Source: Nitrospirota bacterium | GTDB taxonomy: Bacteria > Nitrospirota > Thermodesulfovibrionia > Thermodesulfovibrionales > Dissulfurispiraceae | Reading direction: 5' to 3' | DNA length: 64,000 nt | Assembly: GCA_040758355.1 (NCBI GenBank) | Contig: JBFLWF010000010.1 | Span: forward strand, 16,908 to 80,907 | Shown here: one piece after another, positions 16,511-35,705 of the stretch | Numbering within the stretch: the stretch's first letter is position 1 | How the letters are laid out: every line of letters begins with the position of its first letter | Position numbers and translations under genes: made by a program | The notes under the pieces: generated by a model | The model's database searches: none | What the model was told of the DNA's origin: nothing | What the model saw: the letters and a program-made list of their open reading frames with translations, nothing else

Positions 16511-17284
16511 ATGACCTATAAAAATCTTACAAGAAGAAATTTTTTAAAGGCATCTATTCTAACAGGCACTACTGTGATAGCGGGCAGTGGGCTGACCGTT
16601 TTTGAAAGACACGCTTCTGCGGGGAAAGAGGAATCTGTAGGCCCGCTTCATGATATAGATGTTGGCGGCATTATAAGGCCTCCAGGTGCCTTGCCGGAAA
16701 AGGAATTCCGCTCAAAATGCATAAGCTGCGGCGTGTGCGTGAATGTCTGCCATGTGATGAAATACGATGCCATTGCAATTGCTGCTTCCCCCTTACGCTC
16801 TTTTGGGACGCCTTACATAAAAGACATGAGGGATTTCCCGTGCGGCCTCTGTATGGAATGCCCGAGGCACTGTCCCACTGGAGCCTTAAAAAAGGTAGAA
16901 AAGGAAAAGGCAACCATGGGAATGGCGCTCATTGATTTCGGCCTGTGCTTCGGCTGGAACGGCGATGTATGCCTTTCATGCAGCAAGGCATGTCCAATTG
17001 GCGCAAAGGTCTTTGATTTTTACAACGGAGAGTGGGGTAATCAGCCCTATATCAATGACAACTGCGTAGGCTGCGGTTTATGCGTTAAATACTGCCCTCT
17101 TGGTGGCTCTGCAATAAAGGTGATTACAAAAAGGCAGTATTATGATAAGGTCAAAGCCTCTTATACAAGCGAATTTAAAAGACTTTTATCCATGCCCAAT
17201 GAAGAGCGTTATAACATTGTTTACGGTCAAAATATGCCCCAGATAATGGCAAGGGGAAGGCTGGTGGAACGTGAGTACAGATAG
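16511..17284 (+). CDS. napG: NapG/MauM ferredoxin-type protein
   Basis: TAT TRRNFLK, IRPPGA, four Cys clusters. Confidence 0.88.
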   Translation: MTYKNLTRRNFLKASILTGTTVIAGSGLTVFERHASAGKEESVGPLHDIDVGGIIRPPGALPEKEFRSKCISCGVCVNVCHVMKYDAIAIAASPLRSFGTPYIKDMRDFPCGLCMECPRHCPTGALKKVEKEKATMGMALIDFGLCFGWNGDVCLSCSKACPIGAKVFDFYNGEWGNQPYINDNCVGCGLCVKYCPLGGSAIKVITKRQYYDKVKASYTSEFKRLLSMPNEERYNIVYGQNMPQIMARGRLVEREYR

Positions 17285-31560: not shown

Positions 31561-33573
31561 TTATGATATGCTGAAAAGTACAGTCCTGTCCTTGCCGGAT
31601 TCTTTTGCCTTATACAGGGCGATGTCGGCGTTTTTTATCAGCTCATTGACGCTCTTGCCGTCTTCGGGGAAGGATGCCAGTCCTATGCTGACCGTTATCG
31701 CAGGACGCGGGAATTTTTTGAACCTGTAAACAAGGGATTCTTTTATGTTATTCCGTATCCTTTCTGTGACTATAAATGCCTCGTCTTTGTGCGTCTGGGG
31801 CATGAGGATCGCAAACTCTTCCCCCCCAAACCTGCAAAGGACATCATTTGCCCTCAGGCACTCCCTGGCAATACGCGATAGTTCTTTCAGGACACTGTCG
31901 CCTGCAAGGTGTCCTTCTGTATCGTTGAGGAGCTTAAAATCGTCGATGTCGAATATTGCCAGCGAAAAAATAAGGCTATAACGCTCAGAACGGTGAACCT
32001 CTTCTGTAAAACGCTCCTGAAAGTACCTCCTGTTAAATAAACCGGTTAAATGATCCGTGATGGAAAGCTCCTTCATCTGTTCCGCAAGATTGTAATAATT
32101 GGACACCTTCAATGAGATCGAGGCGTAAGATGCAAAATGGTTAAGGAGGTTAAAATCCCGCTCCGTGAATTCCTCGCCTGTTGTTTTATCGGTAACATTG
32201 AGGACACCCATGGTCTCGGATGCGAACTTCAAGGGCACGCTCACAAAGGAGCCTGTTTTATAATGGGGCTTTGGTTTCATGTGCGGCAGTTCCATCTTGT
32301 TAACATCTTTTATAAAGAGGGGGCTTCCATCTTTGAATACCCTCCCTGCAATCCCTTCGCCTGACTTTATCCTTATTCCATGCGCAAGCCACCTGTTGAT
32401 GCCCTTCACAGCCTTTATCAGCAGGCTGTCCCCTTCAGGCAGCATTAATGATCCCTTTTCAGCAGTCAGAAGTTCGGTGGCAGTGTCTACAATCGATTCA
32501 TAAAGTAAATCAGGGCTATGCAGTTGCGGCGTCAGTTTTGTTACAGAGGTGTTTAATATATACATGTCATTGATGCATTCGTCATAGGCATTATGAAGGA
32601 TGTTTGCCTTAAAGACAAGGCAGACGAGCTTGCAAAACTCCAATATGCTGTATGCCTCTTCCCGTGAGATAACAGAGTTGTATATGGCTATTACGCCGTG
32701 CGTGCAATCCTTGCATGCAATAGGGAAGATATGCATTGAATTGATGCTGTCAGGGAAGCCGAGTCTGGATATTTCGGCGATGTCATTGGTGGACGTTGGC
32801 TTTAAGCCCTCGATGGCGCGTGAAATCATGTGGTTGTTATCTTCTATGTAGAGAGATATCACCTCATCCCTCAGTTTCCCGGAGGACATAACCGTCTTGA
32901 AGAAATTCCTCTCTTTGACCATTATGGAGACCGTGTCAACATGGAATAAGAACAACAGTGCATCAACGATTAATGAATGGACATCCTTTGTGGGGGCAGG
33001 TAATTGCATATTGTACAGTACATCTATAAGGGTTTTAGCCCATTGGTATCTCTTGTGGTTCAGATTCCTTTCGTAGCTGCTTCTCAGAATGTTTTCCAAC
33101 AGGGATTTGAGGTGTGATGCAACTTTCTGGACAGAGGCATAGTCTTTTACGGCGATCACGTCAACCCATGATTCCATTTTCGGCGGCGAAAAGCCGAAAT
33201 TCTGTCCCCTTTTAATAACAAAATCCTCAAATTCGCTCCGTACAAGATAAAATGCACTGCTTACAAGGACTATTTTGTCGTTGTCTATAATGACGGGGAT
33301 AAAAAGATGGTGCTGGTTGGCAGGCCCTTTGAAAACCGAGGCCTCCTTCCTTACCACTGCCCTTTCTATCCCGCTGCGAATGAATTTTTCGTGTTCATCC
33401 TTCCCTGAGGCATACGCCTTTATCTGGGAAATCAGTTTGTCTTCACGTTTGAATGGAATGAGTAATGCCCCGCTGCTGTCGTATGTTGAAAAGGAGAGGT
33501 CGCTGATCTCTGAAATAGCATCCTGTACGCTTGACAGAAGTGCAATGTCGATAAATTCGAGATTTATGGACAT
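31561..33573 (-). CDS. GAF-containing diguanylate cyclase
   Basis: TDHLTGLFNRR, DIDDFK, RFGGEEF, ADIALYKAK. Confidence 0.92.
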   Translation of the reverse strand: MSINLEFIDIALLSSVQDAISEISDLSFSTYDSSGALLIPFKREDKLISQIKAYASGKDEHEKFIRSGIERAVVRKEASVFKGPANQHHLFIPVIIDNDKIVLVSSAFYLVRSEFEDFVIKRGQNFGFSPPKMESWVDVIAVKDYASVQKVASHLKSLLENILRSSYERNLNHKRYQWAKTLIDVLYNMQLPAPTKDVHSLIVDALLFLFHVDTVSIMVKERNFFKTVMSSGKLRDEVISLYIEDNNHMISRAIEGLKPTSTNDIAEISRLGFPDSINSMHIFPIACKDCTHGVIAIYNSVISREEAYSILEFCKLVCLVFKANILHNAYDECINDMYILNTSVTKLTPQLHSPDLLYESIVDTATELLTAEKGSLMLPEGDSLLIKAVKGINRWLAHGIRIKSGEGIAGRVFKDGSPLFIKDVNKMELPHMKPKPHYKTGSFVSVPLKFASETMGVLNVTDKTTGEEFTERDFNLLNHFASYASISLKVSNYYNLAEQMKELSITDHLTGLFNRRYFQERFTEEVHRSERYSLIFSLAIFDIDDFKLLNDTEGHLAGDSVLKELSRIARECLRANDVLCRFGGEEFAILMPQTHKDEAFIVTERIRNNIKESLVYRFKKFPRPAITVSIGLASFPEDGKSVNELIKNADIALYKAKESGKDRTVLFSIS

Positions 33574-33713
33574 GTATCCCCCAATTAAATGTCCCCCAAG
33601 CGAACTTTTTGCGAACTGTAAACAGGTTAGTAAATTATATTTTATTTGCTACTATTATTTAGAAACTCGGGAACAATGTCAATATTAATTTTTGGGTAGG
33701 TGTTTTAAGGATA

Positions 33714-33722
33714 TGATATAAT
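33714..33722 (+). promoter_or_regulatory. Extended -10 promoter 8 nt before ATG 33731 (near-leaderless)
   Basis: TGATATAAT matches TGnTATAAT. Confidence 0.55.
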
Positions 33723-33730
33723 TGAAAATC

Positions 33731-33898
33731 ATGGAAATATGCCCTGTTTGCAAACAGCCTATGAGTGAGTGTACATGCTGCCCGGAATGAGGGCATGTAT
33801 GCCTCCTGGACCTGGGGGAGCCATACTGTCCTGTGTGTAAGCCTGATCCAAAAGAAATGCTGAAGGCAACTATAGAAAGTCTCAAGAAAATGGGGTAA
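33731..33898 (+). CDS. Putative 55-aa Cys-rich selenoprotein (TGA at 33788-33790 read as Sec)
   Basis: MEICPVCKQPMSECTCCPE-U-GHVCLLDLGEPYCPVCKPDPKEMLKATIESLKKMG; hairpin just 3' of TGA; ends 11 nt before the next gene. Confidence 0.72.
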
Positions 33899-33909: not shown

Positions 33910-34359
33910 GTGAGTTTTATGGAACAGCAAAGACCTGAACTGACAGAGATATTCCGGAAGATACTTGTAAAGGTCGACATTATATTTCATATAGTGGCTG
34001 CACTGTTATTGCTTGTTGCCTGCAGTTTTATCCTATATTATGCAATGCTCAATATTATGAATCCTTCCCGCGATTCGATACTTCACCTTGTAAACGATGT
34101 TCTTTTGGCATTGATAATCCTTGAACTTTTATGGACTATTATCAGATTCCTGAAAAAGCAGAAGTTCATATTAGGGCCTTTCCTTGCCATCGGCATGATA
34201 GCTGCTGTGAGGAGGATACTTTTAATAGAGGCGCAGACATCTTTTATGGAGCATGTGCCAGTGGAAAAGCTTTATGAGATAGGTCTCAGTGCTGTTGTAA
34301 TTATAATCCTGATGTTTGCTTATTATTTATCTGTGAAGGCGCAGAAGATTGAACAATAG
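33910..34359 (+). CDS. PsiE-family membrane protein
   Basis: LIILELLWTI, PFLAIGMIAAVRRIL; four TMs. Confidence 0.82.
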   Translation: MSFMEQQRPELTEIFRKILVKVDIIFHIVAALLLLVACSFILYYAMLNIMNPSRDSILHLVNDVLLALIILELLWTIIRFLKKQKFILGPFLAIGMIAAVRRILLIEAQTSFMEHVPVEKLYEIGLSAVVIIILMFAYYLSVKAQKIEQ

Positions 34360-34368
34360 GAGGTAAAA

Positions 34369-34866
34369 ATGGCAGAAGAACATTCCTTTGATATTGTATG
34401 CGAAGTGAATATGCAGGAGGTTTTGAACGCAGTTGATCAGTCAACAAAGGAGATAGGTCAGAGGTTTGACTTCAAGGGAAGCAAGAGCAGCATTGAATTG
34501 GACAAGGGTAAGGGCACTATCACTCTTATTTCTGACGATGAGATGAAACTGAAAAGCGTTATCGATATACTGCAAACAAAGCTCGTTAAAAGAGGAGTTT
34601 CTTTGAAGGCATTGATCTACGGGAAGGTTGAGCCGGCAGCCGGGAATACCGTCAGGCAGCTCATTACGCTTCAACAGGGAATCCCGCAGGAGAAGGCAAA
34701 AGAAATAGTAAAGCTGATAAAAGACACCAAGCTGAAAGTCGGTGCTGAGATACAGAAGGATCAGGTGCGCGTAAAGGCAAAGAAGATAGACGACCTTCAG
34801 GCGATTATAGCAAAGCTTAAGGAAAAGGACTTCGGCATAGCCCTGCAGTTTGCGAATTATAGATGA
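34369..34866 (+). CDS. yajQ: YajQ-family nucleotide/c-di-GMP-binding protein
   Basis: [27 protein letters not shown]. Confidence 0.93.
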
Positions 34867-35705
34867 GCCTTAAACAAATCCTCGATAGATTCTACAGGGA
34901 ATACAACTTTAGAGAGCGTATTCTCCACGACCCTATAGAATTTCCACACCAATATAAGAGACCGGAAGATATTGAGGTCTCCGGTTTTATTGCATCCTGC
35001 TTTGCTTACGGCAGGGTGGATCTGTTCAAGCCTGTGGTAAAGAAGATACTTTCCACAATGGGTGAGAGTCCTTATGATTTTCTGTTAGACTCCAACTTAA
35101 AGAGACATAGACGTCTGTTTTCAGGCATCAAATACAGGTTCAATGAGAATAATGATATTATCTGTCTTCTATATGTATTAAACAGGACTTTAAAAAGATA
35201 TAAGCGGCTTGATGCCCTCTTTAAGCTTCACTGCTGGAATGACGATCAAAATATCGGTATTGGACTGGCAGGGCTTGTAGAGTCTTTATTGAGCATAGAC
35301 ACATCGCCTGTGTATGGAAAAAACATTAAGCCTGCTGGATTCCTCCAGTTTTTCCCTTCTCCTAAGAAAGGCAGTGCATGTAAGAGGATGAATCTTTTTT
35401 TGAGATGGATGATAAGGGACAGGGATATCGATTTCGGAATATGGAAGGGAATCCAAAAGAATAAACTGGTCATTCCTCTTGATACGCACATAGCGCGTAT
35501 ATCGAAATGTCTTGGTTTTACGAAGAGGTCATCTCAGGACTGGAAAATGGCTGTTGAGATTACAGAGGCTTTGAAATGGTTTGATCCTGAAGACCCTCTC
35601 AAATACGACTTTGCCTTATGCCATCAGGGAATATCAAAGGTCTGCAGTAAAATGAACTGTAAGGACTGCGATTTTAATCCTTATGCTGGAAATACCCGAT
35701 TATGA
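34863..35705 (+). CDS. TIGR02757/DUF2400-family protein
   Basis: [35 protein letters not shown]. Confidence 0.85.

Follow-up and report, generated by a model that had tools for sequence, protein, structure and literature searches.

The stretch of DNA analyzed here (64,000 nucleotides, in the following called the window) derives from a Nitrospirota bacterium of the Dissulfurispiraceae (GCA_040758355.1, contig JBFLWF010000010.1, forward-strand positions 16,908 to 80,907). At window positions 33731-33898 on the forward strand it carries a small gene, which runs from ATG to TAA over 55 codons and has one in-frame TGA, at codon 20 (33788-33790, forward strand). The open reading frame (ORF) is real and, as judged from the comparison of homologs, its TGA very probably encodes selenocysteine (Sec, U). 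Read in this way, the product of 55 amino acids contains C4, C7, C14, C16, C17, U20, H22, C24, C33 and C36, that is eight cysteines plus Sec, with U in a CxxU motif, and consists of a conserved Cys/Sec-rich core of 40 residues followed by a variable charged tail. An earlier note on this DNA, made from the letters alone, had put forward such a selenoprotein and had remarked that the gene is absent from the program-made ORF list. The list indeed lacks it, the translation is as had been described, and the proposal itself is now supported by the presence of the Sec machinery, by homologs with Cys and by a signature of the selenocysteine insertion sequence (SECIS) that is tied to the TGA.

Conservation of the reading frame around the TGA

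Taken by itself, the pattern in the single genome is only suggestive, since the hairpin that follows the TGA is not significantly more stable than shuffled sequences (z -0.61 to -1.81; 11 of 200 shuffles match its core) and since equally Cys-rich open frames surround 12 of the 99,084 TGA triplets in the window genome. The pattern thus provides a lead, and the case for a selenoprotein is made by the comparative data. The TGA at 33788 is not an assembly error, as it is covered by a contig that a different study produced (run X3, record 14; run X1 may be the source sample), which keeps TGA rather than TGC or TGT and has all seven listed differences elsewhere, and as genomes of the same genus likewise carry it.

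We collected 97 loci with 82 distinct cores, of which 57 have TGA at the aligned position, 24 have TGC/TGT and one has an ambiguous codon (N). A further 66 distinct cores contained 54 times TGA and 12 times TGY; these were chosen by Cys pattern, so that their Cys counts are conditioned. Apart from the TGA no stop was encountered in 146 cores. The UGA thus aligns with Cys in homologs and is flanked by conserved sequence on both sides, the frame behind it being the best-conserved part of the family. Within the 80 complete cores found by tblastn, H22, C33 and C36 are invariant, C4, C7, C14, C16 and C24 are each present in 79, and C17 is present in 77, while the tail is variable beyond residue 40.

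A probable SECIS hairpin specific for the TGA copies

The TGA is directly followed by an intragenic hairpin of the bacterial SECIS type (33791-33832, forward strand), in which an upper stem of five base pairs (33803-33807 with 33816-33820) carries an apical loop that opens with G33808-G33809, at position +18 relative to the UGA. The earlier note had drawn a hairpin with a loop starting with G at this distance, and such a hairpin exists; the loop of the minimum free energy structure (8 nt, starting with GG 17 nt after the UGA; -12.9 kcal/mol) lies one register off from the drawing. According to Table 1 and Fig. 2 of PMC13188914, bacterial SECIS elements have a G-led apical loop 16-37 nt downstream of the UGA. 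The stem, loop and spacing of the hairpin agree with the consensus in Fig. 2, as the note had supposed, when judged against this published model rather than with bSECISearch. An Rfam search yielded one chance hit.

That the hairpin is functional is indicated by its distribution. Position +18 falls on the third, silent base of a codon for Leu (or, rarely, Arg), and CTG makes up 18% of the Leu codons in the window genome. Nevertheless, G was found at +18 in all 56 TGA cores of the first set versus 5 of the 24 Cys cores, and in all 54 TGA cores versus 5 of 12 Cys cores in the new, mostly metagenomic set; over all fetched copies the numbers were 117/119 and 11/39, respectively. A stem with a G-led loop (4 bp or longer, -2 kcal/mol or lower) can be formed in 55 of 56 TGA cores, compared with 7 of the 24 cores with Cys and 27% of the sequences obtained by synonymous recoding. 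Moreover, third-position divergence between TGA copies is reduced to 0.36 across codons +1 to +11 (0.57 before and 0.61 after), whereas it stays at 0.58 over these codons in the Cys copies. The two Cys copies that are nearest to a TGA copy (90-92% identical) retain the G, which is to be expected if these switches are recent. These comparisons take in related copies that are not independent and do not constitute formal tests. Considering the above, recoding of UGA-20 to Sec by SelB and tRNA-Sec, by way of the hairpin just downstream, is strongly supported by comparison and we regard it as very probable. With its contrast of 117/119 versus 11/39 the family also offers an experiment, cleanly carried out by nature, on the G of the SECIS loop.

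The same data bear on the possibility that the sequence is a pseudogene or a chance frame in which the TGA is a true stop. The hairpin, when considered alone, is not significant and one genome (G126) contains a decayed copy. Neither a pseudogene nor a chance frame would account for a TGA at one and the same codon in 119 distinct copies, for a silent-site signature that is specific for TGA, or for the lack of other stops, and the possibility can be considered effectively refuted.

Presence of the selenocysteine machinery

The window genome (99% complete) possesses the complete Sec machinery, as the earlier note had advised to verify: selA, selB and selD were all recovered above curated cut-offs in a profile search, and selC is represented by a tRNA-SeC(tca) at C17:30918-31015. 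The selD gene itself contains one TGA. None of the three observations that according to the note would speak against a selenoprotein (a genome without Sec machinery, reads with TGC/TGT and a frame that is not conserved after the TGA) was made.

Among the genomes that carry the gene, selA is present in 73 of 78. It was found in 58 of the 62 genomes with a TGA copy, the four misses being genomes that are 74-89% complete, and in 14 of the 15 genomes that have only Cys forms; one further genome has only a decayed copy. The idea that the Cys forms arose through loss of the Sec machinery was therefore rejected. As selA was also present in 30 of the 31 tested genomes without the gene, its co-occurrence fits the use of Sec and does not discriminate.

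Distribution of the family and exchange of Sec and Cys

The family is common in anaerobic Nitrospirota. Matches were obtained in 33 of 61 relatives, in 69 of 301 sampled Nitrospirota genomes, at 67 GTDB loci and in 300 metagenome stretches. Judged by their titles, almost all of the GTDB loci belong to Nitrospirota, for the most part to Thermodesulfovibrionia, and a few bear the label Deltaproteobacteria or Deferribacteres. A search of plasmids gave no match and a search of viral contigs one weak partial match. The protein databases contain few representatives: a hidden Markov model (HMM) recovered 30 proteins from 1.84 billion representatives, 28 of which are family members (P0030, with RCC1 repeats, and P0033, with a Cys repeat, were set aside as unrelated), and a search with a single query gave three matches in 5.8 billion proteins. 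Three database homologs (P0015, P0022 and P0031) carry R, W or A in place of Sec and are possibly point mutants or the result of miscalled codons.

A tree built without the Sec/Cys codon and the hairpin implies about nine changes between Sec and Cys, three of them forced by starred branches, and is poorly resolved. The tree suggests that Cys is able to take the place of Sec and that this exchange has occurred several times.

Several individual loci deserve mention. L224 (G263:C501) is a TGA copy with, 0.8 kb downstream, a Cys copy that has a two-residue deletion in the knuckle. The decayed copy in G126 (L225, G126:C31:8385-8504) has lost cysteines and acquired an internal TAA. Finally, L042 is a divergent TGA copy without C4, C7, C16 and C17, which keeps U20, H22, C24, C33, C36 and the SECIS G.

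Predicted metal sites and a proposed role of selenocysteine

From the spacing of the conserved residues we infer that the 40 residues form a domain with a pair of metal modules, A and B. Module A (C4-x2-C7-x6-C14-x-C16; 33740-33778, forward strand) has a spacing identical to that of the zinc finger of TapT, whereas module B (C17-x2-U20-G-H22-x-C24-x8-C33-x2-C36; 33779-33838, forward strand) resembles the knuckle pair of zinc ribbons and rubredoxins, with Sec included. That module B can exist alone is indicated by P0053, which carries it without module A on a protein with PF04343 (DUF488). In a search of PDB sequences, the best match was the zinc ribbon of RpoB (E 0.015), and a rubredoxin-like stretch (4tpu, residues 142-162; E 0.11) was also weakly matched, at ungapped length. 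Sub-threshold Pfam matches to Zn_Ribbon_1 and RUBY_RBDX were found in 8 and 6 of 57 members, and the best member scores with rubredoxin-like and zinc-ribbon profiles were E 0.0025 and 0.0005. For the window protein, PF21349 reached 11.6 bits against a cut-off of 26.5.

It is likely that the acidic core folds around bound metal. Its mean charge of -3.6 is what one would expect of a module that binds metal rather than RNA. The partition of the ligands is a matter on which we are evenly divided. As proposed here, C4/C7/C14/C16 (site A) would form a structural zinc finger and C17/U20/C33/C36 (site B) a site of the zinc-ribbon/rubredoxin type that binds Zn or Fe and counts the selenolate among its ligands, while H22 and C24 would be spare surface ligands. 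After decoding of UGA-20 by SelB and tRNA-Sec with the help of the downstream hairpin, the selenolate would make site B the site that is easily and reversibly oxidized. The protein could then be a soluble metal switch or carrier with a housekeeping role, sensitive to redox conditions, by which metal sites of these anaerobes would be protected or supplied. This model, with Sec as a ligand of site B in a reversibly oxidizable switch or carrier, is the one we favor, at a confidence that does not go beyond an even balance.

The main alternative is that C17-x2-U20 constitutes a free redox motif, capable of forming a selenenylsulfide, and that the protein is a miniature thiol oxidoreductase. In that case, the redox pair would sit between two structural zinc sites, C4/C7/C14/C16 and H22/C24/C33/C36. 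Such an arrangement accounts for all ten conserved residues and for the degree to which they are conserved (H22 in 80 and C24 in 79 of 80 cores, with C17, at 77, behaving like a dispensable resolving Cys), and in the part of the PMC13188914 catalogue that we consulted CxxU is the usual redox motif of selenoproteins. On the other hand, CPE-U-GH together with Y-CPVC looks like a classical knuckle pair with x12 spacing, C24 is replaced by Tyr in L089 and H22 by Arg in P0032, and a thioredoxin-like fold is lacking. We consider the free redox motif possible though doubtful.

The presence of nine Cys/Sec residues plus a His within 33 residues could also point to a metallothionein-like scavenger, in which these nine chalcogen ligands and the His would bind one multi-metal cluster to sequester Zn, Cu, Cd or Hg. 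Several small selenoproteins in the consulted part of PMC13188914 have been linked to metal resistance, and the window genome contains hgcA. Yet the commonest neighbors include no metal-resistance genes, hgcA shows no link to the gene (14 of 32 genomes with the gene versus 12 of 28 without), module B occurs without module A, and the fixed spacing and mostly single-copy occurrence do not suit a scavenger either, which makes this function improbable.

A [4Fe-4S] cluster with a Sec ligand, bound by the ferredoxin-type motif C14-x2-C17-x2-U20-x3-C24-P, is more improbable still. The family profile weakly matches residues 8-27 of PsaC (best E 0.027) and Pro occupies position 25 in 30 of 80 cores; most cores, however, have Leu or Ser there, none of 57 members has a Fer4 Pfam match, and the invariant C4, C7, C16, C33, C36 and H22 would be left unexplained. 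The 2[4Fe-4S] ferredoxins have two CxxCxxCxxxCP motifs and match the Fer4 HMM, whereas the present family contains one motif-like stretch and lacks a second.

Returning to the favored model of a Sec-ligated metal switch or carrier, several observations weigh against it. The matches to zinc ribbons and rubredoxins all remain below thresholds. The AlphaFold2 (AF2) model of the core is modest (predicted local distance difference test, pLDDT, 75; predicted template modeling score, pTM, 0.37) and gave no fold match in Foldseek or VIA-wide searches, which for a 40-residue model is weak evidence. Three of the 56 TGA cores have lost C17, whereas H22 and C24 are more strictly conserved, a pattern that fits other ligand sets equally well. 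The gene is dispensable, given that 28 of 60 relatives yielded no copy and that 30 of the 31 tested negatives have selA. Finally, two loci, L221 and L222, have the TGA without the G+18 hairpin. Their sequences fold another hairpin, with a GU-containing loop around 36-37 nt downstream of the UGA, which these copies appear to use instead; both genomes have selA and tRNA-Sec. A search of the ESM Atlas returned only unnamed clusters (at 0.90), with recognition below threshold.

Fusions to TadA

Around 70% of the longer homologs (15/21) proved to be N-terminal fusions of the domain to the tRNA deaminase TadA, an arrangement seen in one lineage. One case is L221 (G288:C42, ~73860-74470, reverse strand), a predicted in-frame fusion of 208 amino acids between a TGA form and TadA that is followed by a tRNA-Ser gene; in a sister genome (G320) the same TGA form, L222, is unfused and lies directly upstream of tadA. 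In another genome (L122, G191) a tRNA-Arg(ACG) gene lies directly upstream of a Cys-form TadA fusion; tRNA-Arg(ACG) is the substrate of TadA. A single-sequence AF2 model of a TadA fusion had a pLDDT of 41 and was uninformative.

These fusions, together with the presence of tadA as a neighbor at 8 of 81 loci and the resemblance of module A to the finger of the tRNA-modifying TapT (PMC12630136), could indicate that the protein is an accessory domain of tRNA editing, which supplies or protects the zinc of TadA or otherwise assists the enzyme. The association is narrow, however. Only 5 of the 29 genomes with tadA have the gene next to it, all within families f15 and f16; in the window genome tadA lies on another contig, and tadA persists in genomes without the gene. 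Moreover, the core is acidic, and adjacency behind a shared promoter easily yields a fusion. An accessory function in editing therefore seems unlikely. A more specific proposal combines a mononuclear Fe/Zn site with a Sec ligand in module B (a seleno-rubredoxin or seleno-zinc-ribbon), acting as a redox switch, with a Sec-dependent TadA fusion at L221. We put this forward only tentatively; if true, the relocated SECIS of L221 would make the full-length synthesis of that tRNA-editing enzyme dependent on selenium.

Promoter and genomic context

An extended -10 element (TG-A-TATAAT, of the form TG-n-TATAAT; 33714-33722, forward strand), which the earlier note had placed just upstream, ends 8 nt before the ATG, and no match to a Shine-Dalgarno (SD) sequence precedes the start codon. 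Of the 81 loci, 78 could be evaluated in this respect, the other three having no usable ATG. At 56 of these 78 a -10 hexamer lies 3-12 nt upstream of the ATG, in none of the 56 accompanied by an SD match, compared with 174 of 1495 long ORFs of the window genome, in which the same distance to the first ATG was used as control. This difference suggests that the gene usually heads its own transcription unit and that the mRNA is probably leaderless or near-leaderless, starting at or beside the AUG. The sigma-70 scan did not pick up this forward promoter because it requires a -35 element. Within the control ORFs that do have a -10 hexamer near the ATG, the distance peaks at 5-7 nt, which may mean that leaderless transcription is common in the lineage.

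In the window, the gene is followed on the forward strand by genes for a psiE-like membrane protein (33910-34359, PF06146; next in the putative operon and a neighbor at 8 of 81 loci), YajQ (DUF520; 34369-34866, PF04461) and a TIGR02757/DUF2400 protein (34863-35705), which ends the run. The earlier note had the gene at the head of a psiE-like/yajQ run, and this arrangement is present here; it is not constant, as yajQ, the commonest neighbor, is found at only 19 of 81 loci. Other neighbors include psiE-like, nfeD, tadA and TIGR02757 (8 each) and rarA/mgsA (7). No remnant of the gene was found upstream of yajQ in 20 of 20 gene-negative genomes, and the co-occurrence with yajQ shows no useful link (29/32 genomes with the gene versus 21/28 without).

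The position behind a leaderless promoter, usually as the first gene, and the occurrence of copies that overlap the next gene or are fused to it raise the question whether the UGA acts as a selenium-sensing leader, in which case read-through would govern the genes downstream and the peptide itself would be of secondary importance. This is very improbable given that the downstream genes are variable and have no link to selenium, that the Cys forms have the same layout and that the peptide is under strong constraint.

Divergent from the selenoprotein gene is a PocR/GAF/GGDEF gene (31561-33573; Pfam search). It has a near-consensus sigma-70 promoter on the reverse strand (33654-33682; 11/12), which stands back to back with the forward promoter of the selenoprotein gene. 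Outside the window, hgcA was found above cut-off at C33:10481-11449 (reverse strand), which makes the source organism a putative mercury methylator; matches also occur in 27 of 61 relatives.

Comparison with known selenoproteins and metal-binding proteins

No Pfam, NCBIfam (June 2026) or PHROGs family reached its cut-off on the protein or the family. All 57 aligned members missed every NCBIfam model at E 0.1 with the exception of one match to metG (0.065), and none of the NCBIfam selenoprotein models (FmdB TIGR02605, CC/Se NF041239, MbdU NF045648 and others) scored over its curated cut-off. Likewise, Table 1 of PMC13188914 contains no fitting family and the consulted part of PMC13326102 no matching entry, the representative-sequence table of BSepDB possibly lying outside the comparison. 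The literature searched has no description of the family; Haft & Tolstoy 2025 and Deng et al. 2026 fell outside the comparison and may list it. Set against the catalogues checked, the sequences thus make up a new family, though one that belongs to an established class, the bacterial selenoproteins. The family shares with the catalogued members an in-frame UGA, a G-led apical loop, Cys homologs and selABCD in the genome, and differs in its sequence from every family listed in Table 1 of PMC13188914.

Two small selenoproteins come closest in appearance. NF041197 (CxxC_Se_CxxC, OS_HP3) has about the same length (~55 aa), is Cys-rich, has Sec between knuckles and occurs in the same genome, but its Sec lies in the loop (RxU/GxU) rather than in a CxxU knuckle and it has far fewer cysteines. 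Its HMM (threshold 40 bits) does not match 33731-33898 and matches only G000:C53:9824-9979 (forward strand), outside the window, a second tiny selenoprotein of the window genome, which likewise has a TGA in frame, followed by a hairpin. The FmdB family consists of zinc-ribbon proteins. Its putative regulatory selenoprotein (TIGR02605; PMC2398784) is likewise small with a CxxU motif; there, Sec is rare (two sequences versus 807 Cys homologs), whereas it is the majority form in the present family, which does not match TIGR02605.

The two modules can be compared with known metal sites. Module A shares the spacing C-x2-C-x6-C-x-C with the N-terminal zinc finger of the DTW-domain protein TapT, whose ligands are C31, C34, C41 and C43 according to PMC12630136. 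The likeness is one of spacing only: there is no sequence or structure match (PDB sequences, Pfam, Foldseek and VIA-wide), and the DTW catalytic domain is lacking in the family, including all 21 longer homologs. For module B, C17-x2-U20-x12-C33-x2-C36 reproduces the two knuckles around 12 residues apart (C-x2-C-x12-C-x2-C) of rubredoxin-like proteins (PF21349) and zinc ribbons (PF13240, PF13248, archaeal RpoB), although neither a family HMM over its cut-off nor a fold match was obtained. It differs from these by the extra H22 and C24, by the presence of module A, by the predicted Sec ligand and by the absence of a Gly after the second knuckle.

Roughly 119 families of prokaryotic selenoproteins have been catalogued, to which the present work adds a widespread and systematically unannotated one, in which Sec is the majority state and yet gene callers see only the Cys forms. 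As its core is 40 residues long, short enough for chemical synthesis, and has near-identical natural Sec and Cys variants, the family allows a direct test of what Sec contributes as a metal ligand versus a catalytic nucleophile.
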